64,000 nucleotides of DNA from an uncultured Chitinophagales bacterium (GTDB lineage Bacteria > Bacteroidota > Ignavibacteria > UBA10030 > UBA6906): NCBI GenBank assembly GCA_964444145.1, contig CAYUFU010000005.1:1667-65666 (forward strand), in the 5' to 3' direction. The notes beneath the pieces are model-generated. The model was given only the letters and a program-made list of their open reading frames with translations, did no database searches and was not told where the DNA came from. The position numbers and the translations under genes are program-made. Below, piece after piece: positions 1 to 17,394 of the stretch; position 1 is the stretch's first letter, and each line of letters starts with the position of its first letter.

Positions 1-954
1 TGCTGCATGCGCCGGGCACGCAACATGGCAGCGTCCACACTTCGTGCACGCGTCGAGATCGAGCAGTTCCTTCCACGTAAAGTCGGTGATTGTGCGGTAG
101 CCGGGCTTCGGCGCGCCTTCCGCCGGGCGCGGCAATCGTCGCGCAGCCATTGGGTCTTTGAAGATAAGATTCGCCAAGTCCGTGAAGATGTGCATCGCTT
201 TGGAATAGGGAAGGTACGCGAGGAACACCATCACGAGAACGGCATGAACCCACCACGACGCGAGATGCAACGGCACAACGTGAGTATGCAATCCTATTCC
301 ATTCGTCGCCTCGGCAAGCATCCACCCGACGGGTGACCATCGCTCGAACTCCGGCATGTGCTCGGCAATGCGAAACCCTTCGATGAGATAGCCTGTGACG
401 CCAATGAGAAAGAGTAATGTGAGAAACATTTTGTCGTCGAGCGCGTACCCTGTGCGGTTGTACTTTCCGTTTTGGGCATCTGCGCGATGGTAATCGAGTT
501 GCGGTAAATGGAACGATGAGCGCCGCACCATCATCATCGCGAGCCCGATGAGGAACAGCACACCAAAAATATCCAGTACGACGGAGAACCAAAGGTAAAA
601 CGTCCCTTGCAGTATCTTCATGCCGAAGAAGCGGAGGATGTCGTGATCAATTGCGACGAGCACCGTTCCGATGAAGAGCACCACGAATCCCCAGAAGATG
701 AGGAAATGTGAAAGCCCCGCATACGTGTCGCGATGGAAGATGGTTCGGTTCTGCGCGATCGCCACTAGTGCACGGCGGATTCGTTCTCCGATATTGTTGA
801 GACGATTGACAGCGCGGCCGCGGCGATATTTTTTGTAGCGACGATAGAAGCCGTACAGAAACGCGAGAGAAGTAATTCCCGCAACGGCATAGAATGTCCA
901 CTGCATCCAATCGGGAAAGTGAGCGAAAATTTCGCGGGTCGGTGTATCGAACAT
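1..954 (-). CDS. Membrane-anchored Fe-S oxidoreductase, EMO/HdrD-like; 5' part only, gene runs off the window start
   Basis: Absent from the ORF track because there is no stop inside the window. My translation of the minus strand from ATG 954..952 gives MFDTPTREIFAHFPDWMQWTFYAVAGITSLAFLYGF... It has several hydrophobic helices with conserved His (b-haem membrane-domain style), then DACTKCGRCHVACP (4Fe-4S motif) at the window edge. The junction TAGGAGACATCATG with the upstream gene supplies an SD. Confidence 0.75.
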   Translation of the reverse strand, partial: MFDTPTREIFAHFPDWMQWTFYAVAGITSLAFLYGFYRRYKKYRRGRAVNRLNNIGERIRRALVAIAQNRTIFHRDTYAGLSHFLIFWGFVVLFIGTVLVAIDHDILRFFGMKILQGTFYLWFSVVLDIFGVLFLIGLAMMMVRRSSFHLPQLDYHRADAQNGKYNRTGYALDDKMFLTLLFLIGVTGYLIEGFRIAEHMPEFERWSPVGWMLAEATNGIGLHTHVVPLHLASWWVHAVLVMVFLAYLPYSKAMHIFTDLANLIFKDPMAARRLPRPAEGAPKPGYRTITDFTWKELLDLDACTKCGRCHVACPAHAA

Positions 955-962
955 GATGTCTC

Positions 963-2099
963 CTATGCTGCGATGAGTTCTTCGTTCAGCGCAAGGCGGA
1001 GCGACGAGTCGTCACCATCGCGTTCTGGCAGCAGCCCAACGCGCTCGTGGATTTCCGGCAGCAGCTTCATGCCGCTCTCGAAGTCAACGATGCGATTGAT
1101 GAGATAAAAGAGATACATCGTCGTCAGCCAGTCGGTGAACTCCTGCTTCGAGCCAAGGTGTTTTCGCATGTTGAGCATAATCCAGGAGAAATGTTCCCAT
1201 GTGTCGAAGCAGGTGGCGCAATCGCGCGTGTTGCCGGTACAGCACCGCCGTGTGGTGAAATCGGCGTTGTATGCGCGAAAGTGATGACTGAAGGGGTTTC
1301 CGTTCTTCACGCGTTCGCGGTTGATGTTGTTGTCCGGACTGATGCTCGTACACACGTCGTAACCCCACTGTTCGTTGTAGAGACGTCCCGTGGAGATGAC
1401 ATGGCTGAGATAACTCGTCATCAGAATGCGATCGGGATAGCGCGCAATCATCTTGTTGATTTCGCGCCGCGCCGCAGCAAAACCGATGTTGTTATCGAGT
1501 TCGCCGCCGAGGCTGCACAGGTCGCCGTAAAAATTGAAGAGCACGGGATTGCCATTCGCGACGCATTGCTCGACGACGGACGCGATTTCATGAGCGTTCC
1601 CGGGAGTAACCGTGTAATACCAGAACGCTCGCGGGTCGTTCCTGTAATTGTGCAGTGCCTTTTCAAAAACATCGAGTGAGCCGCTGCCGCGCAGGCGCGT
1701 ATCCGTTTCATGGCTGCCCCAAACTGCAACGCCGATGGGCAAGTTCTCGAAACCATCGTATGGAATCGTACGCAAGCCGTTCGTTGCAACGTTCATCCAA
1801 AAACTTTCATACAGCTTCTTCATACGATGCAATGCGAGACTCGGCTCGCCGCCGACGACCGTGACGAAATTCGTCCCGCGAGCTTTCTCTCGTGCGATGA
1901 AGGCATCAAACTGTGCATCGTCCTTTGGCGCATGATGCGTATCCATCGCTTCCGCAAAAAAATAGCAACCGGCGCAGCGGATGGTGCACGCGTGCGTGAT
2001 GTCCAAGGCTATGGACTTTAGCGGACCTGCATCGCGAATTTCTCGATAGAGACGATTGAGGAATGGGTCTTCGAGATATTCCTTCAAACTGCTGGGCAT
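963..2099 (-). CDS. Radical SAM protein with C-terminal Cys-rich (SPASM/twitch-like) region, function unknown
   Basis: 378-aa ORF. CxxxCxxC triad in ITHACTIRCAGCYF, a GGEP motif, and a C-terminal cluster RRCCTGNTRDCATCFDTW. Overlaps the upstream ligase gene by 16 nt and lies 8 nt from the EMO-like gene. Confidence 0.8.
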   Translation of the reverse strand: MPSSLKEYLEDPFLNRLYREIRDAGPLKSIALDITHACTIRCAGCYFFAEAMDTHHAPKDDAQFDAFIAREKARGTNFVTVVGGEPSLALHRMKKLYESFWMNVATNGLRTIPYDGFENLPIGVAVWGSHETDTRLRGSGSLDVFEKALHNYRNDPRAFWYYTVTPGNAHEIASVVEQCVANGNPVLFNFYGDLCSLGGELDNNIGFAAARREINKMIARYPDRILMTSYLSHVISTGRLYNEQWGYDVCTSISPDNNINRERVKNGNPFSHHFRAYNADFTTRRCCTGNTRDCATCFDTWEHFSWIMLNMRKHLGSKQEFTDWLTTMYLFYLINRIVDFESGMKLLPEIHERVGLLPERDGDDSSLRLALNEELIAA

Positions 2100-3106
2100 A
2101 CTTCTCTATCACCGTGCATGAGGGAGCGTGTTCGTTCTTCCCAATCGTGTACCGATACGCCCTGTAATCCTCGCTCTACAACGTCCCAATTGCGAGCGGG
2201 ACTTGATTCCAGCCTCGCCTCTTCGATGACATTGTCGAGAACGCGGAAGCTTGCACGAACAGAGTGCCTATCGAGTTGGGCTTCTGTGGCGTGAATCCAC
2301 GCGCGTGCGGAAACCTTGAGTCTGCGCATCGGGCCCGAGGATTGGCTGTCGTTATGCAAGTTCAAATACTCAGGGGACGCCATTCGCTTCGCAATTGCGA
2401 TCGAGCGCCTTTCTTCCTCGGATGAGAGTTTTCCTTCTTCAAGGGGTCGCTGGAACGCGTTGGAGAATTCTTCAGCCAAGAGGCGTCCGAGCGTGTCGAA
2501 CTCGAATTGCCCAAACTCGCGCAATGTTGCGATGCGTTCACGCATCGTCTCAAGTGCAAGTGCGCGAAAGGATTCAGAAGGGACGCGCCACACCGCCGCC
2601 ATGCTTGCATAATCAAACGCAAACAGAACGTTACCGACAACGACTGCCGCTTCATCAATCCGTCCGCCGCCAATGCCCGCAATGCGTTTGCCGCCGACTT
2701 CGATTTCGTTGAGGTCATACAATTGCGCTTCCAACCCTACTCGTCGCAACGCAGCCACCGGAGCGGCGAGCATTCGCTGATACACATCCTTCAGCATAAC
2801 GGGCGCGCGCGAGTGATGAACGATGCACTGATAAAACAACTGATTCGCATCGAGATACGTCGCGCCGCCGCCGAGGCGCCGGCGAAACACAGGCAGCCCT
2901 CGAAGCTCCAGTTCTGCGCGGTCGAACGTCGCGTCATACACTTGATGATAACCCAGGCAGACGTACGGCGTGCGCGGTCTGCAGAAGATGATCGTGTCGG
3001 GAGAATCCTCGCGCATCAACTCCGCGACTGCGTGATACACGGCTTGCGTTTGCCACGCGTCGGTCAAGCCGAGATCGAGCAGACGGATTGTTGTCGTTTT
3101 TGACAT
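2084..3106 (-). CDS. Lipoate-protein ligase A-like protein (sLpl-type), paralog 1
   Basis: 340-aa ORF with BPL/LplA catalytic-domain motifs RRLGGGATYLD and VGGKRIAGIGG (candidate catalytic Lys). Confidence 0.8.
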   Translation of the reverse strand: MSKTTTIRLLDLGLTDAWQTQAVYHAVAELMREDSPDTIIFCRPRTPYVCLGYHQVYDATFDRAELELRGLPVFRRRLGGGATYLDANQLFYQCIVHHSRAPVMLKDVYQRMLAAPVAALRRVGLEAQLYDLNEIEVGGKRIAGIGGGRIDEAAVVVGNVLFAFDYASMAAVWRVPSESFRALALETMRERIATLREFGQFEFDTLGRLLAEEFSNAFQRPLEEGKLSSEEERRSIAIAKRMASPEYLNLHNDSQSSGPMRRLKVSARAWIHATEAQLDRHSVRASFRVLDNVIEEARLESSPARNWDVVERGLQGVSVHDWEERTRSLMHGDREVCPAV

Positions 3107-3120
3107 AAGAGCAGGCGGTT

Positions 3121-3161: not shown

Positions 3162-4271
3162 TTACTCCATTACTCCATTGCCCACGACTCCATCAACCAA
3201 TCGTAACTGTTTTCTTATTACCACCAGGTCGTCATCGTTGGGAAGAACAGGATAATCGCGAAACTCCTCGCCTGGACGATATGATCCATAAGGGCGATTG
3301 CATGTCATGCTTCCTTCTCGGTCGGGGCAGCCGTTGGTCATGAACGGCACGCCGCTTTCAATGGCTCTATCAATTAGATCGTCTGCGGCAGCGAGCCGCT
3401 CGATATTTCCCTGCTCGTCGAACTCGATTGCGTCAGCAGAGAGACTTCGCTCTTCGATAAGATGTTTCGCAAGCTGAATGCGCCGCCAGCGATGCATCGG
3501 CGCGCGCGGCACATGCTGCATGGATGTTCCCGGCTCCGGATTGAACGAAAAGAGATAACAGGCAATCTGCTCAGACTTCAGCTGATAAAACATATTCACA
3601 AGCTCGCGGTCTGTTTCCCCAAGCCCGACGATGATGTGACAATTCACCTTCATCGGACCGAAGATGCGGCGCGCTGCACGAACAATGTGCCAGTGATGGT
3701 CCCAATCGTGCGGACCGCGCGCCTTCTTGCCGCGCGTGTTGGAAAAAACCTCCTCCGATGCTGCGTCCAAGCCAACGCCGACGATGTCTGCGCCGGCTTC
3801 CTGAATCTTGTACAAGCGCTCCTCGTTCAGCGTTGTCGCACTGACGAGCGCGGAGATTGGGACACTCGGCGCGGCGCGGCGAACGCGGTTCGTCATCTCA
3901 ATCAGGTCGTCATACGCTCGATGGTCTTGCACCTGCGCGATGCACACGCGTCCGACGCCGCTCGTAGCTTCCTTCTCCGCGATCTTCTCCGCGACAAGGT
4001 CGGTAGGGAAGAGGGGCCATGAGACGCGAATGAACGTGTTGTCTTCCGGAGTGCCGGGTCGCTCACGCGCGAGTCCGCAATACGTGCAGTTAGCGAAGCA
4101 GCCTTCGGGATAATTCTGCAACAAATTGATGCAGCCGCAACGGCAATCGCGCATGATGCGTCCGGGCTTCAGCCGCAGTTCAATCGCCGCCGCCATGCTG
4201 ATGCGAACATAGTCCGGGCTGATTTGATATTGCTCGGATTGGAGGTTTGAAGGAATGTGTACTTTTACCAT
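3162..4271 (-). CDS. Radical SAM enzyme, LipS1/LipS2-type lipoyl synthase component (candidate)
   Basis: The track ORF 3162..4298 starts at TTG; I prefer ATG 4271 (MVKVHIPSNL). Radical SAM triad CFANCTYCGL plus upstream CRCGC cysteines. Embedded between ligase genes, as in sLpl-LipS1-LipS2 clusters. Confidence 0.7.
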   Translation of the reverse strand: MVKVHIPSNLQSEQYQISPDYVRISMAAAIELRLKPGRIMRDCRCGCINLLQNYPEGCFANCTYCGLARERPGTPEDNTFIRVSWPLFPTDLVAEKIAEKEATSGVGRVCIAQVQDHRAYDDLIEMTNRVRRAAPSVPISALVSATTLNEERLYKIQEAGADIVGVGLDAASEEVFSNTRGKKARGPHDWDHHWHIVRAARRIFGPMKVNCHIIVGLGETDRELVNMFYQLKSEQIACYLFSFNPEPGTSMQHVPRAPMHRWRRIQLAKHLIEERSLSADAIEFDEQGNIERLAAADDLIDRAIESGVPFMTNGCPDREGSMTCNRPYGSYRPGEEFRDYPVLPNDDDLVVIRKQLRLVDGVVGNGVME

Positions 4272-4359
4272 AACGTGCTTGATACTGTAGAGCAACACTC
4301 CAGTGTCGCTCCTGTTGGCGCATATGAGCGATTCTGGAGAATCGCTCTACAAGAAATTC

Positions 4360-5355
4360 CTACCACATCACCCCGCAGCACGCGTTGACAAAGTGCGGCT
4401 CCAACGAATGCCCGCGTGCAAACTCCACGATTCCCTCCGCCGGATAGGCGATGCCATTCAACCCGGCTTCAATTGCGAGACGGTCTATCTCATACTTCAT
4501 CACGCCCAACGGACGAGCGCAGCCGAGCATGACAGGTGTTCGCGGCAGCGCTTTGCGCGTCGTTTCAAAGAATTTTCCAATTTCATCGAGCGGCGGCGGA
4601 GCGACATTCGCCATTGGCGTGTTGCTCAACGGCATGAGAATGACAAGCACGAGCAGCTTCGGCGGATGACGCTCGACCATTTCAAGCGCGCGCCATTCTC
4701 CTACCATCCGACCAAAGTGCAAGCCTAAAATGATATGGGGTACTGTGGGCACATTGTATCGGTGCAAGCATGCAAGAGCCTCTTCATAATCGTCGGGCGT
4801 TATGCCGCCGAGATGGTACACCTCTCGAATTGTTGCCTCGTGACCGATGAGGTCAATCATCGCGCCGTCAATACCGACCTCACCCAACGCAGCGCAGGTC
4901 TCTTCGTCCGGCAGGCCGGTGTGCACGCGAATCGTAAGCTGAAGCTCGCGGCGAACGCGCATCAAATCTGGAATGTGTTTCAGCAGCGGCACCCGCCCCT
5001 TGTTGTCGCAGCCGCCGGAGATGAGCACACCGCGAGCTCCCCGTTCTGCCAGCCGTTCGCACAACTGATACAAAGAAGCCCCTGCGTATGGCAGCGACGT
5101 CATGCCTTTGAGCACACTCATGTTGCAGTGTTCGCAGCTCAACGCGCAGGCTGTTCCTGTGATGCTGATGGAAACGAACTCCGCCGCATTTTGCTCGACA
5201 TACGCTGAAGTTTTGTACCTCTTCAATCCCGGCGCATGAAACGTGATGCTGTCGTCAAAATGCTCGCGGCGTATCGCCATGCATTCAGGGTCAACCATGA
5301 TGCGCGTGGATTCATCGCCAGAAGCAGGATGTGAGAGCAGCTCAAGCATACGCAC
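4360..5355 (-). CDS. Radical SAM enzyme, LipS1/LipS2-type lipoyl synthase component (candidate)
   Basis: 331-aa ORF with triad CALSCEHCN and a GGCDNKG motif. Overlaps the upstream ligase gene by 14 nt. Confidence 0.7.
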   Translation of the reverse strand: MRMLELLSHPASGDESTRIMVDPECMAIRREHFDDSITFHAPGLKRYKTSAYVEQNAAEFVSISITGTACALSCEHCNMSVLKGMTSLPYAGASLYQLCERLAERGARGVLISGGCDNKGRVPLLKHIPDLMRVRRELQLTIRVHTGLPDEETCAALGEVGIDGAMIDLIGHEATIREVYHLGGITPDDYEEALACLHRYNVPTVPHIILGLHFGRMVGEWRALEMVERHPPKLLVLVILMPLSNTPMANVAPPPLDEIGKFFETTRKALPRTPVMLGCARPLGVMKYEIDRLAIEAGLNGIAYPAEGIVEFARGHSLEPHFVNACCGVMW

Positions 5356-6460
5356 GTTCGGGATGAGGGTTCACAAAACAACCGTACGGCTGATTTCTCT
5401 CGAGACGTGCAAGGGCGTCTTTTGTCGCGCAATGAATCACTGTTAGCATTCGCTCAACCGGAATCATTCTCAGCTCGTCTTCCCATCGAGCGAACACGTT
5501 CAGCACTGTTGCAGTAAGTGCATCAGGTTCACTGGTGTGCCAGCGTAAACTTCGCTCGAGGTCGGCGATGGCGTCATCGGACGTGAAAAAATCGCCGTTG
5601 ATATGAACTGACTTTAGCATTCGTCCTGCGAGAGCGACTCTAACGTCAAGCAATCCTCCGCTGGTTTTCATGTGCGCAACGCCCGCCAAATCGCCGATTG
5701 CCGTCGTCTGAAATATCCATTCGGGCGTGAGATATTTTTCCTTTTCGAGTACCGCAATCGCAGCACGCTCATCGGAGGAAAATTCGCCGCGCGTCAGTTC
5801 GACGTTGAACGCAGCCGCGTAGCCTTCGGACACTTTGTTGCGAACATCGTTCATCGCAATGGCGCCGCCGATTTCGCACCGCACTGTTGACGTGCGCGCT
5901 GCGACGGTTCGAATTACTTTGTCTGAGATTTTTTCCAGCGGGGTTGAAAGCACGTGCAACATCAGCTCGACATCCAAATCAACGAGCAGCGAAGCATGAA
6001 ACAACAACCCGCCACTTGGCGCGCGATGGAGTCCGAGTCCTGCAATCTTCCGTCCGTTCACCTCGAGGTCGTTCTTGCGACGAAACGCCGCCTCGATGCC
6101 GAGCGCATGCAGCGCCGTGAGCAAGCCTTCGGCGAATTGCGTCATGAGCGCGCGAGCATTCCCGTACACGTTCTCCGCGCGGCTCGCAATCATCAACGCA
6201 ACGCCCAGTTGGTCCGCACCCATGATGATCGCGCCGCCGCCCGTGGGACGGCGATTGATTGGGATGTTGTGCTCGCGGCAGAAGTCAATATGAATCTCGT
6301 TCTCCGCTCGCTGAAATCGTCCAACTAACGCGCAGTGAGAGCGATAGGTGTAGAGTCGCAACGTCGGGGGCGACTCGCCCGAGCCAGCGCGGCGCGCGAG
6401 CGTCTCGTCGGCGGCGAGACCGAAGGAGGCGGAGACGTTGTTGTCAGTTATGAGGCGCAT
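5342..6460 (-). CDS. Lipoate-protein ligase A-like protein (sLpl-type), paralog 2
   Basis: 372-aa ORF with motifs RRPTGGGAIIMG and VNGRKIAGLG (LplA-type catalytic Lys context). Confidence 0.8.
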   Translation of the reverse strand: MRLITDNNVSASFGLAADETLARRAGSGESPPTLRLYTYRSHCALVGRFQRAENEIHIDFCREHNIPINRRPTGGGAIIMGADQLGVALMIASRAENVYGNARALMTQFAEGLLTALHALGIEAAFRRKNDLEVNGRKIAGLGLHRAPSGGLLFHASLLVDLDVELMLHVLSTPLEKISDKVIRTVAARTSTVRCEIGGAIAMNDVRNKVSEGYAAAFNVELTRGEFSSDERAAIAVLEKEKYLTPEWIFQTTAIGDLAGVAHMKTSGGLLDVRVALAGRMLKSVHINGDFFTSDDAIADLERSLRWHTSEPDALTATVLNVFARWEDELRMIPVERMLTVIHCATKDALARLERNQPYGCFVNPHPERAYA

Positions 6461-6476
6461 TTTGTATTTTGGAGTT

Positions 6477-6532
6477 ACGCCTTCAGGCGTTATCCTCTTG
6501 TTAGGGTGAGCCTGAAGGCTCGACTACGAAAA
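6477..6532. repeat. REP-like palindromes (pair, opposite orientations)
   Basis: ACGCCTTCAGGCGT at 6477..6490, and GAGCCTGAAGGCTC followed by GACTACGAAAA at 6508..6532. Confidence 0.7.
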
Positions 6533-6538
6533 CATACT

Positions 6539-7141
6539 TCAAAACATATCCCACTTCTCACCATAACCCTTGATTGGATACTTCCTCCAAATCTCCACCA
6601 ACCAATCGCGCCCCTTCTCGCGCAAATACCAATTGAAACTCGACCATTCCCATTCGTCCAACCGTTTCACATAGCCGTGCTTCACAGGGTTCCAGTGGAT
6701 GTAATTGAGCGTCGAATAGTAGTGCGCTTCGCCGCGAATCATCCGGTCGGCGAATTGGTACCAGACCTTACGCTTTCCTGTCAAGCCATCTTCCAGATTC
6801 CACCCCCGTGAAGTTGTGCCATGCAAGCTGTTGAAAAGCTCCGACAGCTTTGGAAACGCTGGAACGAACGCAAGTACATGATAGTGATTCTCCAAAAATA
6901 CCCATCCGTCAATTTCGATTTCAGCATCGCGAAGTTTTTCCAGAACGAGCGTTTGAAATTCGGTGCGACGCTCAGGTGTTGCCATGATGTGTTTGTGCTC
7001 GAAGTTCGCGGCGGTGAGGAAATAGTACGTCTTCTCGTTGAATGGATGCGGAGGCGCGTGGAGTGGATAGCCTCTTGACTTTCTTAATCGCACAACTGCT
7101 TTGCGCTGTTCTGGCGTCATGCGACGGTATTCGTAGGGCAT
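6539..7141 (-). CDS. REP-associated tyrosine transposase (RAYT; IS200/IS605 TnpA-like HUH/Y1)
   Basis: 200-aa ORF with HUH motif in ENHYHVL and Tyr motif YIHWNPVKHGYV, typical of RAYT/COG1943-like proteins. Confidence 0.85.
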   Translation of the reverse strand: MPYEYRRMTPEQRKAVVRLRKSRGYPLHAPPHPFNEKTYYFLTAANFEHKHIMATPERRTEFQTLVLEKLRDAEIEIDGWVFLENHYHVLAFVPAFPKLSELFNSLHGTTSRGWNLEDGLTGKRKVWYQFADRMIRGEAHYYSTLNYIHWNPVKHGYVKRLDEWEWSSFNWYLREKGRDWLVEIWRKYPIKGYGEKWDMF

Positions 7142-7157
7142 ATGCTTTCCTCACTTC

Positions 7158-7182
7158 AACGCCTGAAGGCGTTCCTACGAAA
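7158..7182. repeat. REP-like palindrome
   Basis: AACGCCTGAAGGCGTT followed by CCTACGAAA. Shares GCCTGAAGGC-N4-CTACGAAA with 6508..6532. Confidence 0.7.
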
Positions 7183-7183: not shown

Positions 7184-7627
7184 TTAAACCCATCCTTGCA
7201 ACCGATACCGCTGAATTTCACTTTCGACCCAACGTGGAATCGCGCTCCCAGAAACCAACGCCGCAGATTCTTGCTTCCAATCTGTCGCGTCGAACGATGC
7301 AATCCAACCGTCGTTGTAGGGATCACGGTTGACGAGTGTTGGATCGTGCACAACGTTCACATTGCATCCGATGAGAATTCCGCTTACAGGTGCGATGATG
7401 TCTCCGGTCATCTTCGCCGCTTCGAATGTACCAAATGCTTCACCGCGCCCGACGGGCGTTCCGACTTCTTTGAGCGTTACATACACAAGGTCGCCAAGCG
7501 CCTGCAAGCCAAGTACATCAATGCCAACAATGATTCGACCTGTCGCATCATCTGCCCGCGCCCACATGTGGTTGACGGAGTCATAATAGCGATCGTGGGG
7601 AATGTAAATTGCGGTTGAAGAGGACAT
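7184..7627 (-). CDS. lbpA: GcvH-like lipoate-binding protein LbpA (copy 1)
   Basis: 147-aa ORF with lipoyl-lysine context FEAAKMTGDIIAPVSG (compare GcvH VESVKAASDIYAPVSG). Confidence 0.85.
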   Translation of the reverse strand: MSSSTAIYIPHDRYYDSVNHMWARADDATGRIIVGIDVLGLQALGDLVYVTLKEVGTPVGRGEAFGTFEAAKMTGDIIAPVSGILIGCNVNVVHDPTLVNRDPYNDGWIASFDATDWKQESAALVSGSAIPRWVESEIQRYRLQGWV

Positions 7628-9497: not shown

Positions 9498-9516
9498 AGT
9501 GAGGCAATGCCTCACT
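9498..9516. other. Hairpin spanning the stop codon of the HdrD-like gene
   Basis: AGTGAGGC-AAT-GCCTCACT (8-bp stem). No U-tract. Confidence 0.35.
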
Positions 9517-10798: not shown

Positions 10799-11577
10799 CA
10801 GGGACACTCCGTCATTATTCCGTTTTCGATTCGATACACACCCAACAGTCTCCGCGAGAACTCCGGTAGACCCGGCATGACCTTGTTGAATTCCTGCGTC
10901 ATCCGCATGCGTAAGACCGTGTACACGTACACGACATAGACACAACTCAAGAACACATCGGTCCCGAACAGGTTCTTGCTGATGGTCTGGAATCCCGTAG
11001 CCTCACCTACCTGGTGAACAAACGCGACCGCCTCACCGACACGCAAATAAATGTCTCCGGCGGTTTTGCCGCTGAGGTCGAATGCCTCAACAGTTACCAA
11101 TGGCAGCGCTCCTGTTCGTGTTTTCGGGTCCCACATCCAGCGTGTCCAGAGCCAATAGCGTTCGGGGTCAGTGAAGTGAAGTATCTCGCTGGCGATGTCG
11201 CGACGGATGTTGTCTTCGAGAGGTTCGAGCTTATCCACAAATGTTTGGAACCGCGATTTTGTCGGGTCGCTACCGTAGAGCAGTTCCCACGTCCACGCGC
11301 GCAAGTCATCCGGTCGAAATTGCTTCATGATTGCGTCCGTCTTTCGCCGCGCAGAAAAAATTCGCCGCAGCAACGAAAAGTAATCCGCCGATGCAAGAGA
11401 GGGGAGCGCCTCACGACTGAGTTTTTTTTGAAACCATAGCGCCTTCAATTCCACTTCTGCGCAGATTTTTTGCAGCTCCTCTGCTGCAACTTTCTCCAGC
11501 GCCTGGCGCATGAATTCTTTTGCGGTTTCCGTGTCAACGACTTGGCTCACCCTGAAACCCGATTTGATTTCACGCAA
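10798..11577 (-). CDS. shdrH: Conserved hypothetical in the sHdrH position
   Basis: 259-aa ORF (TTG start in the track; the start is uncertain). No recognisable motif; assigned only by its position between the HdrA-like gene and the next Hdr subunit. Confidence 0.55.
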   Translation of the reverse strand: MREIKSGFRVSQVVDTETAKEFMRQALEKVAAEELQKICAEVELKALWFQKKLSREALPSLASADYFSLLRRIFSARRKTDAIMKQFRPDDLRAWTWELLYGSDPTKSRFQTFVDKLEPLEDNIRRDIASEILHFTDPERYWLWTRWMWDPKTRTGALPLVTVEAFDLSGKTAGDIYLRVGEAVAFVHQVGEATGFQTISKNLFGTDVFLSCVYVVYVYTVLRMRMTQEFNKVMPGLPEFSRRLLGVYRIENGIMTECP

Positions 11578-11761: not shown

Positions 11762-12838
11762 CTATGCCGCCGCGTGAACGCCATGCTTGCGCACGATGGC
11801 AATCGCCTTCATCGCCGCCGCCGCCGCGGATGAAACCGAATCTTCGAGGTCGGCGGGACCTGTAGCAGCGCCGCATGCAAACACGCCGGGCACACTCGTC
11901 GTCACGGTATCGAGTGCGCCGCCGACGGCTTCGATGAACTGGTATTTGTTAAGCTGCAACCCGAAAACGCTCGCCATCGCGCGCGTCCCCGCACTCGGCT
12001 CCATCCCAACCGAGAGCACAACGATATCCATTGGCACTTCCATCGGTCGTCCCATCGTCGTGTCTTCGCCGCGGATCAATAAGCGGTCGCCTTTCTTCAA
12101 TACTTCGGTAACAATGCCTTTAACGTAATTGACCTTGTGCTTCTCTTGCGCGGGCCAGTAGATTTGATTTTCCCAGTAACCGTACATGCGCATGTCAATG
12201 TAGAAGATGAAGACCTTGCAGTTAGGGAGGAGCTGGCGAACTTCGATTGCCTCTTTGGAGGCGACGCCGCAGCAGACCTTCGAGCAATACTCGTTGCCGA
12301 TTTGTCTGTCGCGCGAACCGACGCACTGAATGAAGCACAAGCGCTCCGGCGGTTTGCCGTTCGATGGACGCACGACGTTGTGTGCGCGCAGCATTTTCTC
12401 TAAGTCCACCAGTGTGATGACGTCGTCGAACTCATAATAGCCGTATTGCTGCGTTTCACGTCCCGGATCGAAATGTTGGAATCCCGTTGCGATGATGACA
12501 GCGCCCGCTTTCACTTTTTCCTGTCCCATGCCGTTCTTAACGGTGATCTCGAAATTGCCGACGGAGCCGCTTGCCGCTGTCACGGTGGAATTCAGTCGAA
12601 TGCCAACCAGTGGATTGTTGTCAACGCGCGCAACCATTTCGGCAATCGCGCTGTCTGCGCTGCGGAAATCTGGCGTGAGCGCGGCGTAACCCGCTTCGTC
12701 CGGCGTGCCGCCGAGGCGCGCGCGTTTTTCGATGAGTATCGCCGTATAGCCAAGCTCAGCGACGCTGCGCGCTGCTTCCAAGCCCGCAGGTCCGCCGCCA
12801 ATAATCATGATAGGCAAGACTGATTCAGGCATTAACAT
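11762..12838 (-). CDS. shdrA: sHdrA-like FAD/Fe-S flavoprotein
   Basis: 358-aa ORF with IIGGGPAGLEAA dinucleotide fold and Cys cluster CVGSRD...CSKVCC. Overlaps the HdrB-like gene by 14 nt. Confidence 0.85.
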   Translation of the reverse strand: MLMPESVLPIMIIGGGPAGLEAARSVAELGYTAILIEKRARLGGTPDEAGYAALTPDFRSADSAIAEMVARVDNNPLVGIRLNSTVTAASGSVGNFEITVKNGMGQEKVKAGAVIIATGFQHFDPGRETQQYGYYEFDDVITLVDLEKMLRAHNVVRPSNGKPPERLCFIQCVGSRDRQIGNEYCSKVCCGVASKEAIEVRQLLPNCKVFIFYIDMRMYGYWENQIYWPAQEKHKVNYVKGIVTEVLKKGDRLLIRGEDTTMGRPMEVPMDIVVLSVGMEPSAGTRAMASVFGLQLNKYQFIEAVGGALDTVTTSVPGVFACGAATGPADLEDSVSSAAAAAMKAIAIVRKHGVHAAA

Positions 12839-14018
12839 CCTCCCACGTCAGGTATTGTTTTTCACCGCTCTTCAACCGTTCGGTCGCTGCTTCAAATTCC
12901 TTCCAAGCTTTCTCGTGATCGATTCCGACTTTCTCCAAGAACGCCGTGTTGTCCGTACTGTGCCAGTGGAGTTGCAGCACTTTGTAGGGATGTGCGCCCA
13001 TGGCAAGCGCCGCAATCTGCGAATCGGACATGACGGGAACACCGACATTGCGTCCGTGCGCCTTCGCGGCAAACTGACTTTGGTCGAGCGTTGTCACGCA
13101 ACCCGTGTCGTGCGTGACCGTGACATCGGGATTGGCTTCTTGTTTCATCACTTCGATTTTCCGCATCGTTGCAAACGAGCGGGAGAAATCGCGCGACACA
13201 AGAATGTGGCGGAACCCGAAGCCGCAGCAATCGAACCATGTGGAATAATCCTTCACGTCAATACCCAGGGCTTTCAGTGTTCCGGTAATAATTGCAGACC
13301 GCTGCGCGCCGTAAATTTCCGGATCATACACTGCATCTTCTGCAATGAGCTTATGATAGTGACATGCAGGATGGACCGTTGCGCGTATCATGCTCATGTC
13401 GCGCACCTGATGCGCTGCAATCCTGTCGCGCACGGCGTGCACCCATTCGCTGTAGTGAACAATCTCTTCAGGTATGACGAATTTCTTTCCAAGCCGCGCC
13501 AGAATGTCGCGCACTTGCTTGCGCAGCGCGGCGCTGTGCAAGAGCTGCTGCCGCGTTTCTTTGTAATGTCCGAAGCTCGTGCCGCAATGAATGATGGGGA
13601 AGTATCCCGTTTCAGCCGCCGCCGCAAAGTTGCGCATGGCAACCGCCGCTTGTGCCGCCGCATTCGAGGTTGCTGAGGCATAGTAATTCCACGCCGTGCA
13701 CGACGTCTGGTCGGTCGGGTCAATGTAATCGAGCCCAAGTTGGCGGTTTATCCAAAAGATAGAAGTCGAGTAGCCGGGGATGTGCCCGCACTGACCGCAG
13801 CTCTTGTGATGCCAGGTTTTCTGCACCGGAATCTTTTTCTTCCGCCCGTACTTTGTCTCGACTTCGATGTACGGCTCGGGCACGCGCTGAACCTCCCACT
13901 CACCCTCTTTTTCTAACTCGAAGAGGTGCTCATGAAAATCGTCGGTGGGTGCGTTCTTGACATCGCGAACAAACTCTCGGTCCTTCGCCTGCTTCACTAA
14001 CGCTTCCTGTGGTATCAT
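12825..14018 (-). CDS. shdrB1: sHdrB1-like CCG-domain subunit
   Basis: 397-aa ORF with CCG motif in FDCCGFGFRH and a further Cys-rich region. Confidence 0.8.
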   Translation of the reverse strand: MIPQEALVKQAKDREFVRDVKNAPTDDFHEHLFELEKEGEWEVQRVPEPYIEVETKYGRKKKIPVQKTWHHKSCGQCGHIPGYSTSIFWINRQLGLDYIDPTDQTSCTAWNYYASATSNAAAQAAVAMRNFAAAAETGYFPIIHCGTSFGHYKETRQQLLHSAALRKQVRDILARLGKKFVIPEEIVHYSEWVHAVRDRIAAHQVRDMSMIRATVHPACHYHKLIAEDAVYDPEIYGAQRSAIITGTLKALGIDVKDYSTWFDCCGFGFRHILVSRDFSRSFATMRKIEVMKQEANPDVTVTHDTGCVTTLDQSQFAAKAHGRNVGVPVMSDSQIAALAMGAHPYKVLQLHWHSTDNTAFLEKVGIDHEKAWKEFEAATERLKSGEKQYLTWEDVNA

Positions 14019-14072: not shown

Positions 14073-14777
14073 TCACTCAAAGCTGACAGCATAGCCCGCT
14101 TCCTCGAGTCGTTCTTCCATCACATCCTGTAAAATCATGAACAACCCCTCGTCCACTTCTTTGATCATATCCATCACGCCAGTCATGTGCCAAATCAAAT
14201 ACAGTTCAATGATGGTCTTCTCGTCCACCTGCCATCCTGTTTCTGTGGTGTGCAATGTTTCGGGCGGCAGTGCGCGGCGCCAAACATCGAGGTTATCCGA
14301 AATCGCTTTCACGTGGGGTCCCCAATCCGGGAACGCGTTCGGCTGCAGCATATCGGGGGAGACTTGCGTGCCGGTTGACATGATCTTGTAGACGACGCGC
14401 CCGTAGCCTTCGAGCGCCTCCTGTGCGGTTGCCAAGCCGTTCTTCACAGCGACTTCGCGCATGATCGTGATGATGCCGCCGGGCGAATTCTTGCGCGGGC
14501 AGCGGTCGCACGAAAAACATTGCGAGCAGTCCCAGATGCTGTCGTTCATCAATGTGTACACGAGGTCCACATCCTCGCGGGCAACGGCTTGCGCAATCTT
14601 GCGCGGACTGAAATCATAGAACCGCGCCGAGGGGCACGCGGCTACACAAATGCCGCATTCATAACAGCCATACAGATACTCCTCATAGCGCAGGTCTGCC
14701 TTGACCTGCTCGAAGAGCCGTTCTTTCTCTTCGTAGGCGACGCTCGCGTATTTTCTCCCTGTCAGGTCGAGAGCCAC
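14073..14777 (-). CDS. shdrC1: sHdrC1-like 2x[4Fe-4S] subunit
   Basis: 234-aa ORF (GTG start) with CYECGICVAACP and CSQCFSCDRCP. Confidence 0.8.
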   Translation of the reverse strand: MALDLTGRKYASVAYEEKERLFEQVKADLRYEEYLYGCYECGICVAACPSARFYDFSPRKIAQAVAREDVDLVYTLMNDSIWDCSQCFSCDRCPRKNSPGGIITIMREVAVKNGLATAQEALEGYGRVVYKIMSTGTQVSPDMLQPNAFPDWGPHVKAISDNLDVWRRALPPETLHTTETGWQVDEKTIIELYLIWHMTGVMDMIKEVDEGLFMILQDVMEERLEEAGYAVSFE

Positions 14778-14820
14778 GATGTATTTTCCTTTTCCTCTTC
14801 AACTAACCGAAGCGAAGTGT

Positions 14821-14927
14821 CTCCACCCATTTGAGGTGATGGATTATTGGATTGGTGGATTCCATTCATCCAACAATCCAGTTCAAGATCATTCGTCCCG
14901 CTTTGCGGGACGCAGGGTTCAGTGAGC
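14821..14927 (-). repeat. Intercistronic two-hairpin repeat, copy A
   Basis: Read on the minus strand: AACCCTGcgtCCCGCAAAGCGGGACGAA...GAATCCAcCAATCCAATAATCCAT, matching 37094..37200. GC hairpin at 14895..14911. AT-rich hairpin arms at 14848..14860 and 14868..14880. Confidence 0.7.
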
Positions 14928-15398
14928 CTACGCCTCAAATCCCTCCACGTGAGCGCATGCCTTGAGATTTTCTTTTTCAATCTTTTGTCGGTATGCTTCC
15001 ACTGCGGCGTCGCCTGTTGACATCGCCGCAAGATCTGCTTGAAGATTCGATGGCTGCATTTTTACAATCCACCCTGCGTTGTAGGGACTTTGATTGATGA
15101 GCTTCGCGTTCTGTCCGACCTTCGCATTGACCTCGATAATCTCTCCTGAGACGGGGGATTTTACGGGACCAACCCATTTGCCGCTTTCGACCGTCGCAAT
15201 TGGTTTTCCTTTTTCGCGCTTCGTGCCGACGCCTTTTGCTTTTGCGTGGAGCAATGGTCCGGCGAGATTTTGCGCGACATCGGTCATGCCTACGAGCACC
15301 GTTCCATCGTCATTGAGTTTTATCCAGGTGTGGTCCTCAACCGCGTAGTAGAGGTCTTTGAGAATGACACAACCACGGACTTCGTCTTTTTCGGGCAT
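14928..15398 (-). CDS. lbpA: GcvH-like lipoate-binding protein LbpA (copy 2)
   Basis: 156-aa ORF with lipoyl-lysine context VESGKWVGPVKSPVSGEI. GGAG SD upstream. Confidence 0.85.
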   Translation of the reverse strand: MPEKDEVRGCVILKDLYYAVEDHTWIKLNDDGTVLVGMTDVAQNLAGPLLHAKAKGVGTKREKGKPIATVESGKWVGPVKSPVSGEIIEVNAKVGQNAKLINQSPYNAGWIVKMQPSNLQADLAAMSTGDAAVEAYRQKIEKENLKACAHVEGFEA

Positions 15399-15500
15399 TG
15401 CTTTTTCTCCTGCTCACTGGTATTAGGCAGCGATTAGCACACCACCGCGTTCTGCACCGCTGTACAATTTGCACCCGCCATTGGTATCCCTTACACTACG

Positions 15501-15878
15501 TCAAAAGTACATCACATGATCCGATTCGAGCGCCAAATCTATGATGCTCGTTGCGCCCAGAATCTCAACGCCGGGAATCAAGTCCTCAGACTGCATGTTC
15601 CACAATGCCATGCTCTGCTGGCAGACGCGCAGCTTCACGCCGGACTCCATCGCCTGCTCAAGCATCGTTTTGAGTGTTACGTCGCTTGTCGGGTCGAGCT
15701 GGACTTTTTCCGCTGCGCCTTGCTTCAATTGATTGGTTCCATCCATCGTGAACCAAACCATCACCTCCATCTCCATTGCCGCCGCCGCCATCGCATAGAA
15801 AAGGGGAGAGTAGGTTCGGCGCGGCGTCTCGACCCCATGGGTTTGTATCACCAAAATTTTTTTCCCTTCGGCATCCAT
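15501..15878 (-). CDS. DsrE/DsrF-family sulfur-carrier-like protein (small)
   Basis: 125-aa ORF with DsrE-like layout (KILVIQTHG...) and a candidate active Cys in LRVCQQS. Confidence 0.7.
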   Translation of the reverse strand: MDAEGKKILVIQTHGVETPRRTYSPLFYAMAAAAMEMEVMVWFTMDGTNQLKQGAAEKVQLDPTSDVTLKTMLEQAMESGVKLRVCQQSMALWNMQSEDLIPGVEILGATSIIDLALESDHVMYF

Positions 15879-15977
15879 CGGGTTATTCTCTGTTGTCGTT
15901 TCCCATTCGATTACTGTTCTCTACCCTCTCGGCGTTCTTTGCAGTCAATTCATTTTCCTGTTTTCGGACAAGTTGCT

Positions 15978-16265
15978 CTAAGGATTGATTTCACACGGCT
16001 TGTTCGGGTCAGCGAGAACGATGAGATACTTCTTGTTCCATTCCCACCCGTCGTGTTCGGACATAAATTCATGCAGCTTGTCTTTTTCGGGATGATGCGT
16101 ATGAAGCTTGAGTGCAAGAGGAATGTTCCGTTCGTCCGTTGCGAGTATCTCCATCAAGAGCCATTCACCGGCGAGATCGTGATAAAGCTGGCTCAACTCA
16201 CTGAGCGCAAGTTCCTTCCCCGTCCAATCATCATTCGGCGCTGGAACCTGTAGCGTCCGTCTCAC
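15978..16265 (-). CDS. Hypothetical 95-aa protein, translationally coupled to the DsrE3-like gene
   Basis: The track ORF 15978..16331 overlaps the dsrE3-like gene by 70 nt. An in-frame GTG at 16265 overlaps the dsrE3-like stop as GTGA. No motif recognised. Confidence 0.5.
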   Translation of the reverse strand: MRRTLQVPAPNDDWTGKELALSELSQLYHDLAGEWLLMEILATDERNIPLALKLHTHHPEKDKLHEFMSEHDGWEWNKKYLIVLADPNKPCEINP

Positions 16266-16780
16266 ACAAACAAACTCACGTTCGCGTTTGCCGCGTATTC
16301 GAGGAACGTCGCCGCTCCGCCGATCTCGCACTCCGGAATAAAATCTTCTCTGGTGAAGCCGAATACATCCATCGTCATCTGGCAGCCAATCATGCGGACG
16401 TCCATTTCAACACATGCACTGCGCAAGTCCCCAACGGTCGCGACGCCTTTCTTTTTGAATGTCTGCTTCATCAGATTCGTGGCGACGTTTTCAAAGCCGG
16501 GTATGTTGCCCATTAACAAGTTTGGAATGTGCCAATTGATTTTCTGGAATCCCTCTGGTCCGAACGGCATCTTCATCGGCATCGCCGGGTTACCGACGGG
16601 CGTTACGGTTGCATGAAGGTCCTTCTTCAGCAACGGCAAGCCATAGAACGTGAAAAAGATTGCAACTTCCCAATCCATCGAGGCTGCCGCGCTCGCGAGA
16701 ATGAAGGGAGGGTACGCCCAATCCAGCGTTCCCTTGCTGGCAATAAGTGCCAGACGATGTTTTCCATTACTCTGTGCCAT
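16262..16780 (-). CDS. DsrE3-type (COG2210-like) sulfur-carrier protein
   Basis: 172-aa ORF with conserved Cys context MIGCQMTMDVFG and a GGAG SD. Confidence 0.75.
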   Translation of the reverse strand: MAQSNGKHRLALIASKGTLDWAYPPFILASAAASMDWEVAIFFTFYGLPLLKKDLHATVTPVGNPAMPMKMPFGPEGFQKINWHIPNLLMGNIPGFENVATNLMKQTFKKKGVATVGDLRSACVEMDVRMIGCQMTMDVFGFTREDFIPECEIGGAATFLEYAANANVSLFV

Positions 16781-16867
16781 AAGGATTCTCCTTCAATGCA
16801 ATGAAAAGAATTCTCAACCGAGAACGGAATAGTTGCCGCTTGAAGAGAGCCTCGCTCGATGCGTTTG

Positions 16868-17110
16868 TTAGTGAGTTACCTTGATGAGGAAGCGGAATTT
16901 TCCGTTGTCTTCTTTCTGCGCATGAAGCAACTCATGCTGCGTTTGCCGCGCCCATGCTTGCATGTCAGGAATGGACCCAGGGTCGGTTGCAACCATCTCG
17001 AGGACTTCTCCCACGTGCATTTCTTTGATGACCTTCTTGGTCTTGACAACAGGCATGGGACACAGTAAGCCGCTGCAATCGAGAGTTTTGTTAGGTTTCG
17101 TTTCGTTCAT
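16868..17110 (-). CDS. tusA: TusA-family sulfur carrier
   Basis: 80-aa ORF with canonical LDCSGLLCPMPVVKTKK (CPxP motif). Its ATG overlaps the upstream stop as ATGA. Confidence 0.9.
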   Translation of the reverse strand: MNETKPNKTLDCSGLLCPMPVVKTKKVIKEMHVGEVLEMVATDPGSIPDMQAWARQTQHELLHAQKEDNGKFRFLIKVTH

Positions 17111-17394
17111 GGTCGTGACTCCTGAACGGATTTGCGGATGTAGAAAGTGAATTCGTTCTCGCGTTCCCTCACCTCAATCAACTCGTGGCCCGTGCTCCGA
17201 CACCACGCTGGGAAATCGGAGACCGCGTTGGGGTCGGTGGAGATCAATTCCAATACCTCATACGCTCGAAGTGCGTTCATAGCGCGGTGCAGTTCAACTA
17301 CTTGCATGGGACCGAAGGTCTCACGACAATCAAGTTGCTTGCTTATCACAAGATGATTGTTGAACACGATTGGAAGGTCTGAACCTGGCTTCAA
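17107..17394 (-). CDS. TusA-like protein lacking the CPxP cysteine
   Basis: 95-aa ORF (TTG in the track; a GTG 27 nt downstream is an alternative start). It aligns by eye to TusA, but the motif reads LDCRETFGPMQVVELHR, so Cys becomes Gly and the second Pro becomes Gln. Confidence 0.7.
   Translation of the reverse strand: MKPGSDLPIVFNNHLVISKQLDCRETFGPMQVVELHRAMNALRAYEVLELISTDPNAVSDFPAWCRSTGHELIEVRERENEFTFYIRKSVQESRP

Follow-up and report, generated by a model that had tools for sequence, protein, structure and literature searches.

Gene organization of the locus

We have analyzed a 64,000-nucleotide stretch (64 kb, hereafter the window) of contig CAYUFU010000005.1 in assembly GCA_964444145.1 of an uncultured hot-spring bacterium, whose left part carries a gene cluster of the type called sHdr (sulfur-oxidizing heterodisulfide reductase-like) with genes for lipoate-binding proteins (LbpA). 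The open reading frame (ORF) listing, the translations and searches with Pfam and NCBIfam revealed 21 co-directional genes on the minus strand (17394..1), which form an unbroken row up to the left edge of the window. In the order of transcription, they encode a TusA-like protein, TusA, a DsrE2-like protein, the product of a small ORF, a DsrE3A-like protein, LbpA, sHdrC1, sHdrB1, sHdrA, sHdrH, and sHdrB3, followed by EtfB, EtfA, a second LbpA, a REP-associated tyrosine transposase (RAYT), a lipoate:protein ligase [sLpl(AB)], LipS1, LipS2, a second LplA-like protein, a third radical SAM protein, and an ETF:(methyl)menaquinone oxidoreductase (EMO). The widest intergenic gap, of ~210 nt, separates sHdrA from sHdrH, and several gene pairs overlap by 1-16 nt. 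Genes outside the row were taken from the non-overlapped ORFs of at least 180 aa in the window. A locus of JGI metagenome 3300037465 (L081) carries the sHdrB3 sequence of the window and is 99.99% identical to the window.

A first-pass annotation made from the letters alone had described about 21 co-directional, overlapping or tightly spaced minus-strand ORFs, and all the elements that it listed are present between 17394 and 1. These are two TusA-like and two DsrE-family proteins, both pairs found with Pfam and NCBIfam; two GcvH-like proteins with the lipoyl-Lys contexts VESGKW and FEAAKM; HdrC-like, HdrB-like (CCG) and HdrA-like subunits; a protein without family match in the sHdrH position; a fused ferredoxin plus 2xCCG protein; EtfB and EtfA; and a membrane Fe-S protein. 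The lipoate ligases and radical SAM enzymes are also there, not as one set but as two LplA-like and three radical SAM genes. The transposase and the ~95-aa small ORF had gone unidentified.

Type II sHdr systems are defined by the arrangement shdrC1B1AHB3-etfAB-emo, with the operational rule that one syntenic cluster contains both shdrC1B1AHB3 and etfAB (PMC11094781, PMC11582611). In the window, the genes encoding C1 (14777-14073), B1, A, H, B3, EtfB and EtfA (to 7702) follow each other on one strand with gaps of at most ~210 nt, and the emo gene is found within the same cluster, as the last of the row. The order shdrC1-B1-A-H-B3-etfBA...emo fits the published definition, in agreement with the type II variant postulated earlier. 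Judged by gene content and order, the cluster is classified as a canonical type II sHdr-LbpA-ETF-EMO system, i.e., a member of a known and widely catalogued kind.

The sHdr core subunits

The shdrC1 gene (14073..14777; like all the genes of the row, on the minus strand) encodes a protein with two [4Fe-4S] ferredoxin-like motifs and eight Cys residues (Fer4_8/Fer4_17). HdrC models match it with an E value of 2e-25, yet it stays far under their cut-off, and it is 59-93% identical to its counterparts in related loci. The sHdrB1 protein (12825..14018) contains the Pfam CCG domain (E 3e-9) of the non-cubane cluster subunit, which is the proposed catalytic subunit, and its residues 82-356 can be aligned with methanogen HdrB (E 6e-15). 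Its 90%-identity cluster groups proteins from KSB1 metagenome-assembled genomes (MAGs) together with one protein from an "Acidobacteria" MAG.

The next gene (11762..12838) encodes sHdrA, a short FAD/[4Fe-4S] flavoprotein of 358 aa that contains the GGGPAGLEAA sequence pointed out in the first-pass annotation. This protein aligns end to end (residues 8-351, E 9e-93) with sHdrA from Hyphomicrobium denitrificans (PDB 6TJR), and with methanogen HdrA (~650 aa) in two separate stretches (E 1e-57). In the 6TJR alignment, C168/C172/C185/C189/C190 form a conserved Cys cluster. The protein has the short form of ~350 aa, which lacks HdrA's ferredoxin and insertion domains.

The sHdrH protein (10798..11550; 250 aa from a GTG at 11550) is a conserved hypothetical protein whose gene is always located between shdrA and shdrB3 in related loci. 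It has no match in Pfam or NCBIfam, and all its 1511 homologues are unnamed. An AlphaFold2 model based on an alignment of 46 homologues predicts an all-alpha protein (pLDDT 81, pTM 0.82), for which a Foldseek search of the PDB found no fold match (best E 0.95, TM <=0.2).

sHdrB3, EtfAB and EMO

The shdrB3 gene (9512..10798; 428 aa) encodes an HdrC-like di-cluster ferredoxin fused to an HdrB-like CCG domain (Pfam Fer4 and two CCG stretches). The protein contains two CxxCxxCxxxC motifs and one intact CC-pair site, the CC pairs being kept only in the C-terminal CCG stretch, and thus presents the fused architecture with a single predicted non-cubane site. Its best match in the PDB is not methanogen HdrB or HdrC but the cytoplasmic part of EtfD/EMO (9OJN, E 8e-56), which corresponds to the ETF:menaquinone oxidoreductase of Mycobacterium smegmatis (preprint 10.64898/2026.08.18.745454).

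The last gene of the row encodes the cluster's own EtfD-type EMO. It runs off the left edge of the window, so that only 318 of its 694 codons (954..1), covering a NarI-like membrane domain and the first Fe-S motif, lie inside. The full 694-aa protein was read from a sister metagenome contig (L085:11146-13230) whose first 318 residues are those of the window. It presents hydrophobic segments within the first 260 residues, with weak matches to NarI and QmoC-type membrane domains, two CxxCxxCxxxC motifs, and a C-terminal CCG domain, and its best solved relative is also 9OJN (E 1e-79). EMO joins a NarI-like cytochrome b to an HdrC-like domain and to an HdrB-like domain for the non-cubane cluster (preprint 10.64898/2026.08.18.745454), and this three-part architecture, together with the etfAB neighborhood, supports the predicted assignment of the protein as EMO/EtfD.

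When sHdrB3 was compared with residues 303-694 of this EMO, both aligned end to end with 38% identity over 398 aligned positions (E 2e-94). They have in common the two cubane motifs, the six Cys of one non-cubane site, and the absence of a CC pair in the first CCG repeat. Judging from this alignment, the cytoplasmic module of EMO has a soluble paralogue in sHdrB3. This paralogy may already be noted in Kuempel et al. (2024), the primary source on the type II electron route. The window EMO resembles those of Syntrophus aciditrophicus and M. smegmatis in its three-part build (NarI-like, HdrC-like di-cluster, and HdrB-like non-cubane parts) and in the location of its gene near etfAB. It differs from them in that it is found in a sulfur-oxidation operon, not in a beta-oxidation context, and in that the same operon also holds a soluble paralogue of its cytoplasmic part, i.e., sHdrB3.

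The EtfB (8667..9434; Pfam ETF, E 8e-26) and EtfA (7702..8670; Pfam ETF_alpha, E 2e-31, and ETF, E 1e-28) proteins are encoded between shdrB3 and the second lbpA gene. The best PDB match of EtfB is the beta subunit of the Methylophilus W3A1 ETF (E 6e-43), and bifurcating ETFs match with E 1e-27 or weaker. A bifurcating ETF that, together with the neighboring ferredoxin-NAD(P)+ reductase (FNR) described below, would provide a ferredoxin-reducing route was also considered and dropped, since EtfB resembles the non-bifurcating ETF of Methylophilus far more.

Sulfur-transfer, lipoate-binding and lipoate assembly proteins

Upstream of the core, the TusA sulfur carrier (16868..17110; 80 aa; Pfam TusA, E 5e-25) contains the CPxP active site, with Cys17 in LLCPMP. 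Wherever a related locus extends to this position, it is occupied by a homologue 54-79% identical. The first gene of the row (17107..17394 as the maximal ORF; NCBIfam TusA, E 1e-9, residues 18-90) encodes a paralogue that has lost the CPxP catalytic Cys, showing FGPMQ where CPMP is expected, and can only be named TusA-like. Its start codon is uncertain, an alternative call of 66 aa beginning at 17307. Homologues are located upstream of canonical tusA in loci L003, L004, L011, L017, L026, L032, L039, and L093, and the loss of the Cys (GPMQ, DPLP, EPMP, and others) is common to the homologues of KSB1 and Calditrichota loci, in every lineage examined. The KSB1 members have instead a common Cys in AWCR.

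The DsrE2-type sulfurtransferase (16262..16780; 172 aa) matches Pfam DrsE_2 (E 3e-48) and NCBIfam DsrE2 (203.8 bits vs a cut-off of 210), and its top PDB matches are 3PNX and 2QS7, the latter being a DsrE2B protein (PMC11094781). The DsrE3A-type sulfurtransferase (15501..15878; 125 aa; Pfam DsrE, E 2e-21) has a lone Cys86, and its top PDB match, over the full length, is 3MC3 (E 1e-20), i.e., Sulfolobus solfataricus SSO1125, which is the DsrE3A reference (PMC11094781). Type II clusters go together with TusA and DsrE3A (PMC11094781), and our DsrE3A-type and DsrE2-type assignments fit this published association. The conserved small ORF between both dsrE genes (15978..16265; ~95 aa) is called as a 95-aa gene in the same contig. 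It has no Pfam or NCBIfam match, and homologues 30-60% identical are found at the same position in most related loci.

The first LbpA copy (14928..15398; 156 aa), with the predicted lipoyl-Lys in VESGKW, has a GcvH fold (Pfam GCV_H, E 8e-37), stays under the TIGR00527 gcvH equivalog cut-off (85.8 vs 115.85), and is syntenic upstream of shdrC1 in related loci. The second copy (7184..7627; 147 aa; Pfam GCV_H, E 1e-26), with FEAAKM, stays under both GcvH cut-offs and is syntenic in related loci with 30-74% identity. Both genes are located inside the shdr row, which also contains the sLpl-LipS1-LipS2 genes. The sLpl(AB) ligase (5342..6460) has a catalytic and a C-terminal domain (Pfam LplA-B_cat, E 2e-38, BPL_LplA_LipB, and Lip_prot_lig_C; NCBIfam lipoyltrans, E 5e-45). 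The two radical SAM lipoyl synthase components correspond to NCBIfam LipS1 (4360..5355; E 7e-68, 229.2 bits vs a cut-off of 230) and LipS2 (3162..4298; E 1e-61, 208.9 bits vs a cut-off of 270; Pfam Radical_SAM, E 5e-16). The row is thus predicted to contain, in synteny, the two-domain ligase and the two distinct radical SAM components of the sLpl(AB)-LipS1/LipS2 lipoate assembly pathway.

Two additional genes follow. The second LplA-like protein (2084..3106; 340 aa) consists of the catalytic domain only (Pfam LplA-B_cat, E 7e-29), has homologues in most related loci, often elsewhere in the locus, and might transfer octanoyl or lipoyl groups. The third radical SAM protein (963..2099; 378 aa) contains a CX3CX2C motif and a C-terminal Cys-rich stretch, matches Radical_SAM, Fer4_12 and SPASM-maturase models weakly, and has homologues 45-76% identical in many type II loci.

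Distribution of related loci and identity of the host

We have found at least 7990 relatives of sHdrB3 at E < 1e-20 in a large protein collection and 231 in GTDB contigs representing one genome per species. The best 80 of these 231 GTDB loci were compared by tblastn with all the window proteins. Their hosts are assigned to KSB1, Saprospiraceae, Cyclobacteriaceae, Calditrichota, Planctomycetota, Chloroflexota, and Myxococcota, in addition to one Acidobacteriota MAG. In every locus whose contig extends sufficiently, the order TusA-DsrE2-(small ORF)-DsrE3A-LbpA-C1-B1-A-H-B3 is kept, and C1, B1, A, and B3 are 41-94% identical to those of the window, with 35-78% for sHdrH. The EtfBA, EMO, second LbpA, sLpl, LipS1 and LipS2 genes recur in most loci that are long enough, and those of the second LplA-like and third radical SAM proteins do so in varying order.

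Five of the collinear loci, i.e., L002 (JACQSX01), L003 (WFVT01), L011 (DRLW01), L029 (M3007), and L052 (BCD1), belong to assemblies listed with sHdr_TypeII = 1 (PMC11582611, Supplementary Data 1); in pairwise comparisons with them, the window proteins are 67-86% identical for C1, B1, A, and B3 and 53-73% for sHdrH. The same study tabulates type II systems in three species of KSB1 and in Bacteroidota (among them Saprospiraceae, Cyclobacteriaceae, Chloroherpeton, and UBA10030), Calditrichota, Marinisomatota, and Planctomycetota (PMC11582611). Since type II is listed there for these phyla, the context of the Fibrobacterota-Chlorobiota-Bacteroidota (FCB) group has already been catalogued though not characterized. 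The first-pass annotation, whose author was not aware of any characterization of the system in such bacteria, was thus right about the lack of characterization, but the setting itself is not new.

The nearest named locus is that of Candidatus Coneutiohabitans thermophilus, with an sHdrB3 89% identical, which the NCBI taxonomy places in Candidatus Zhuqueibacterota (ex-KSB1), within the FCB group. The pathway proteins of the Ca. Coneutiohabitans MAGs are 58-94% identical to those of the window. The best named matches of the window PNPase (76-82% identity) come from "Ignavibacteria" and "Bacteroidota" MAGs. NCBI labels of MAGs are unreliable, as illustrated by L011, a "Bacteroidetes" that is KSB1 in GTDB. 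The FCB flavor claimed for the genome is backed by these nearest relatives, by a protein with a type IX secretion system (T9SS) sorting domain (25799-27916) and by BshC (51308-53008), both of which had been noticed beforehand. The host would therefore be an FCB bacterium that is closest to the Zhuqueibacterales by its cluster, which does not prove membership in Zhuqueibacterota.

Some individual loci deserve a comment. The Acidobacteriota (UBA6911) MAG locus L002 (JACQSX010000038.1) is fully collinear with the window and the KSB1 MAGs, its pathway proteins being 55-90% identical and its core sHdr proteins 83-86% identical, and its sHdrB1 belongs to the same 90% cluster as those of the window and KSB1. 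This may reflect either a recent transfer of the operon between phyla or a mis-binned contig. The locus of the Calditrichota isolate J042 (L039; RFHE01000039.1) contains a fused sHdrB3 69% identical to that of the window and was scored as type I, not type II (PMC11582611); its 12.7-kb contig stops before the position that etfAB occupies in its relatives. The type I/II calls seem to be sensitive to contig truncation. Finally, the Ca. Coneutiohabitans locus (L093) contains at 9239-9885, between shdrC1 and shdrB1, two short nitroreductase-family fragments that are absent from the window and look like the remains of an insertion.

Association with CO2 fixation genes

On the same strand and directly upstream of the shdr row, we have identified the genes encoding phosphoribulokinase (PRK; 20897-21937; NCBIfam, 419 bits), the form I RuBisCO large subunit (19405-20868; NCBIfam, 753 bits), the RuBisCO small subunit (19039-19362; RuBisCO_small in the gene calls), a CBS-domain protein, and a TrxR-type FNR (17606..18622), all read from the minus strand. 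The contiguity of the cluster with Calvin-Benson-Bassham (CBB) genes that had been claimed for this region is therefore real (19039-21937). The best PDB match of the FNR is the ferredoxin-NADP reductase 3AB1 (E 2e-84), and the protein does not have a CxxC motif. The FNR and the CBS-domain protein fill 17606-19052, between RuBisCO and tusA.

In L093 (Ca. Coneutiohabitans), an FNR 73% identical is located at the same place before tusA (4412-5464), and the order there is Rpe-Tal-Tkt-FNR-TusA...shdr, with ribulose-phosphate epimerase (Rpe), transaldolase (Tal) and transketolase (Tkt) upstream of FNR. By contrast, none of the 42 GTDB loci that have a full 10-kb upstream flank contains RuBisCO, PRK, FNR, Rpe, Tal, or Tkt in it, and the CBB-sHdr juxtaposition is for this reason lineage-specific. 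The adjacency is common only with Zhuqueibacterales (KSB1) genomes.

The study describing Zhuqueibacterota reports a CBB cluster and ascribes autotrophy in the Zhuqueibacterales to H2, through group 1d and 3b hydrogenases (Lian et al. 2024; PMC11683472). Its text does not mention hdr, sulfide, or thiosulfate, and its gene table contains soeA and no hdr, tusA, dsrE, or sqr (PMC11683472). Given that hdr and reduced sulfur are never mentioned there, an sHdr operon beside CBB genes appears to be unreported. The Ca. Coneutiohabitans MAGs resemble the window in having CBB-cycle genes and the same FNR upstream of tusA; the difference lies in the upstream genes, which are PRK-RbcLS in the window and Rpe-Tal-Tkt in L093.

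A SoeABC-like set is located 18 kb from the shdr cluster, where the gene of a fused Fe-S and NrfD protein (35438-37093; 551 aa) lies before that of a molybdopterin oxidoreductase with an Fe4S4 domain (37233-40127; 964 aa). The best NCBIfam matches of the latter, i.e., PhsA, DmsA, and TtrA, are far under their cut-offs, and NCBIfam has no SoeA model. The enzyme does not contain a twin-arginine (Tat) signal, and for this reason a periplasmic Psr/Phs/Ttr reading was set aside in favor of a Soe-like one. Homologues of both genes adjoin shdr clusters in L015, L042, L057, L072, and L080, and KEGG soeA is tabulated for Zhuqueibacterales MAGs (PMC11683472). Judging from these similarities, a cytoplasm-facing SoeABC-like enzyme could oxidize the sulfite made by sHdr and feed the quinone pool.

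Proposed function and alternative explanations

The comparison directly covers gene content, gene order, homology, and conservation. Together, they indicate that the region probably encodes a complete type II sHdr-LbpA system that oxidizes protein-bound sulfane sulfur to sulfite in the cytoplasm and brings its own cofactor-maturation genes. The chemistry is inferred from the genetics of type I systems and from the published type II proposals, and both the path of the electrons and a connection with CO2 fixation are proposed. In this scheme, a sulfane sulfur or thiosulfonate group would move among the DsrE2-like and DsrE3A-like proteins and TusA, and would then be delivered to the lipoamide arm of LbpA. 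An iron-sulfur flavoprotein complex formed by sHdrC1-B1-A(-H)-B3 would oxidize the LbpA-bound sulfur to sulfite. sHdrB3, in place of the sHdrC2B2 of type I, would give the electrons to a simple non-bifurcating EtfAB, which the membrane-bound EMO would re-oxidize by reducing menaquinone, and sLpl(AB), LipS1, and LipS2 would lipoylate both LbpA proteins.

That EtfAB and EMO carry the type II electrons to menaquinone has already been proposed (PMC11094781, PMC11582611), and the sHdrB3-EMO paralogy agrees with this proposal and sharpens it. In the cryo-electron microscopy structure of the S. aciditrophicus EMO:EtfAB complex, the FAD of ETF sits beside the non-cubane clusters of EMO (preprint 10.64898/2026.08.18.745454). 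The simplest model would be a linear wire from the sHdr core through sHdrB3, EtfAB, and EMO to menaquinone with the same docking module on both sides of ETF, i.e., an "ETF sandwich" in which EtfAB is loaded by sHdrB3, a soluble version of the EMO module that docks ETF, and is unloaded onto menaquinone by the membrane-bound original. This provides a structure-informed hypothesis for the least understood type II step, in which an EMO-like module would pass the electrons of the complex on to ETF.

The system shares with the type II systems described by the Dahl laboratory (Justice 2014; Cao 2018; Kuempel 2024; Tanabe 2024, PMC11094781) the core genes and their order, a fused sHdrB3 in which one non-cubane site is intact, EtfAB and EMO, TusA and a DsrE3A-type transferase, and LbpA with sLpl(AB)-LipS1-LipS2. 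It differs from them in its host, an FCB lineage apparently closest to the Zhuqueibacterales, in being located directly downstream of PRK-RuBisCO-FNR, and in the RAYT insertion. The type II papers do not name the Cys-less TusA paralogue, the second LplA-like protein, the third radical SAM protein, or the small ORF (PMC11094781, PMC11582611); the last three are shared with many type II loci, and the TusA paralogue is shared with KSB1/Calditrichota loci. Regarding the type I systems of H. denitrificans, Aquifex aeolicus, and Thioalkalivibrio (shdrC1B1AHC2B2), for which there is genetic proof of function, sHdrA is clearly the same protein (6TJR), and C1, B1, H, LbpA, the TusA/DsrE relay, and the sLpl-LipS1/S2 maturation are also shared. 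In contrast to type I, the window has a fused sHdrB3 instead of sHdrC2 and sHdrB2, adds EtfAB and EMO, implying menaquinone as acceptor, has no lipT in the cluster, and contains DsrE3A and DsrE2 rather than DsrE3C or DsrE3B.

Several observations weigh against assigning sulfur oxidation to this cluster. What type II systems do is less firmly established than for type I (PMC11094781, PMC11582611), and no type II system has yet been examined genetically or biochemically in any organism (PMC11094781), so that we extrapolate the reaction, what LbpA does in it, and the path through ETF and EMO. sHdrB1 and sHdrC1 are comparable only to methanogen Hdr structures. The first LbpA passes the broad GcvH subfamily model, so the sequence does not separate LbpA from GcvH; the PDB matches of both copies are GcvH structures only, which is uninformative in this regard, and the tree of the founding LbpA paper left the deep LbpA/GcvH branches unresolved outside Proteobacteria and Aquificae. 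Since sequence, PDB, and published tree do not separate them, LbpA membership rests on genomic context. LipS1 lies just under its curated cut-off and LipS2 under its own, though in each case this is the top and specific model. No SQR (sulfide:quinone oxidoreductase), Sox or rhodanese for the uptake or activation of sulfide, thiosulfate or S0 was found in the window, and a transposase inside the operon could have polar effects.

The fact that type II function is unproven leaves room for an ETF/EMO-linked oxidoreductase acting on an organic thiol, disulfide, organosulfur, or other lipoate-dependent substrate, with TusA and DsrE in persulfide trafficking or detoxification and a coincidental RuBisCO neighborhood. 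Many of the 80 related loci are found in Saprospiraceae, Cyclobacteriaceae, and Planctomycetota MAGs, which are not known sulfur lithotrophs, and the module shared by sHdrB3 and EMO otherwise serves fatty acid-derived electrons (preprint 10.64898/2026.08.18.745454). The absence of CBB genes from all 42 fully flanked loci and of SQR and Sox from the window points in the same direction. Nevertheless, type I organisms require precisely this set, i.e., the C1-B1-A-H core, TusA, DsrE, LbpA, and the dedicated lipoylation genes, to oxidize sulfur, known type II carriers such as Sulfobacillus oxidize sulfur (PMC11094781), and genes for a Soe-like sulfite dehydrogenase adjoin the cluster in several lineages. 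We regard this explanation as unlikely.

Somewhat less likely still is a system that serves chiefly to detoxify persulfides or reactive sulfane sulfur in a sulfidic hot spring and passes a few electrons to the quinone pool, sustaining neither growth nor CO2 fixation, with autotrophy driven by H2. This would be consistent with the group 1d and 3b hydrogenases of the CBB-positive Zhuqueibacterales, whose autotrophy is credited to H2 (PMC11683472), and with the role in detoxification proposed for DsrE4-type relatives (PMC11094781). Against it, an operon of 21 genes, which brings its own cofactor machinery and a quinone reductase dedicated to it, would be a large investment for detoxification, its same-strand position right behind PRK-RuBisCO-FNR, observed in two genera, suggests co-regulation with carbon fixation, and a Soe-like enzyme and a terminal oxidase are encoded in the same window.

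Finally, a methanogen-type Hdr/Flox, LutABC, or GlcF-type oxidoreductase accompanied by a genuine glycine-cleavage H protein, suggested by the generic HdrA/B/C, GlcF, LdhH, and GcvH matches in Pfam/NCBIfam and by the GcvH structures matched by the LbpAs, was rejected on model scores and gene context and is hardly credible, given that curated cut-offs are far from reached (257 vs 1100 for HdrA2, 119 vs 450 for HdrB, and 27 vs 333 for GlcF, with LdhH and LutB likewise low), that the HdrA-like protein has the short sHdrA form and fits 6TJR, and that no LutB/LutC, FAD-linked glycolate oxidase subunit, gcvT, gcvP, Mvh, or Flox genes are present in the 64 kb. These were the groupings that the first-pass annotation had set against its own proposal, including a genuine GcvH with gcvTP nearby; among the ORFs of at least 180 aa taken as genes in the window, none has a GcvT or GcvP domain.

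Returning to a type II system that oxidizes sulfane sulfur, its most likely physiological role would be in sulfur-driven aerobic chemolithoautotrophy, because PRK-RuBisCO-FNR adjoin the cluster and a Soe-like enzyme and a respiratory set are encoded in the same 64 kb. More tentatively, with chances that we place somewhat below even, the shdr-etf-emo genes, FNR, and PRK-RuBisCO might constitute one sulfur-driven autotrophy module in Zhuqueibacterales-like FCB bacteria, operating by the "ETF sandwich" mechanism. The lineage has been reported at up to 15% relative abundance in a hot spring, and the published reconstruction names only hydrogen. The adjacency challenges this H2-only account of autotrophy in Zhuqueibacterales-like bacteria; if the proposal is true, reduced sulfur, and not H2 alone, powers CO2 fixation in an abundant hot-spring lineage. 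The system is not of a new kind, and, its host being uncultured, type II does not become experimentally tractable through it.

Transposase insertion and other genes of the window

The RAYT insertion (6467..7182, minus strand; ORF 6539-7141, 200 aa) matches the NCBIfam model REP_Tyr_transpos with 84.6 bits vs a cut-off of 80. The gene is intact, lies between lbpA2 and slpl, and is not part of the pathway. Three REP-like hairpins with GCCTGAAGGC flank it, and these are the only copies in the 64 kb. The insertion is absent from all the 80 related loci compared, and Ca. Coneutiohabitans has a methyltransferase at this spot. A scan of 1-19500 for promoters and terminators, whose coverage does not include FCB promoters, yielded counts that match the shuffled expectation (10 vs 9.9 and 19 vs 23.6, respectively) and thus gave no operon boundaries.

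Near the CBB genes, the 22246-30856 region encodes a sigma-54 activator, an anion transporter (SulP/STAS, of the sulfate or bicarbonate type), the FG-GAP protein with the T9SS tail, and a PAS histidine kinase together with a sigma-54 response regulator. It is possible that these genes regulate or transport for the autotrophy module. Further on, a respiratory block (53293-63630) encodes a Rieske protein, a cytochrome b6-like protein whose best model is ExtP, the cytochrome c oxidase subunits I and II, and an 869-aa multihaem/mono-haem cytochrome c.

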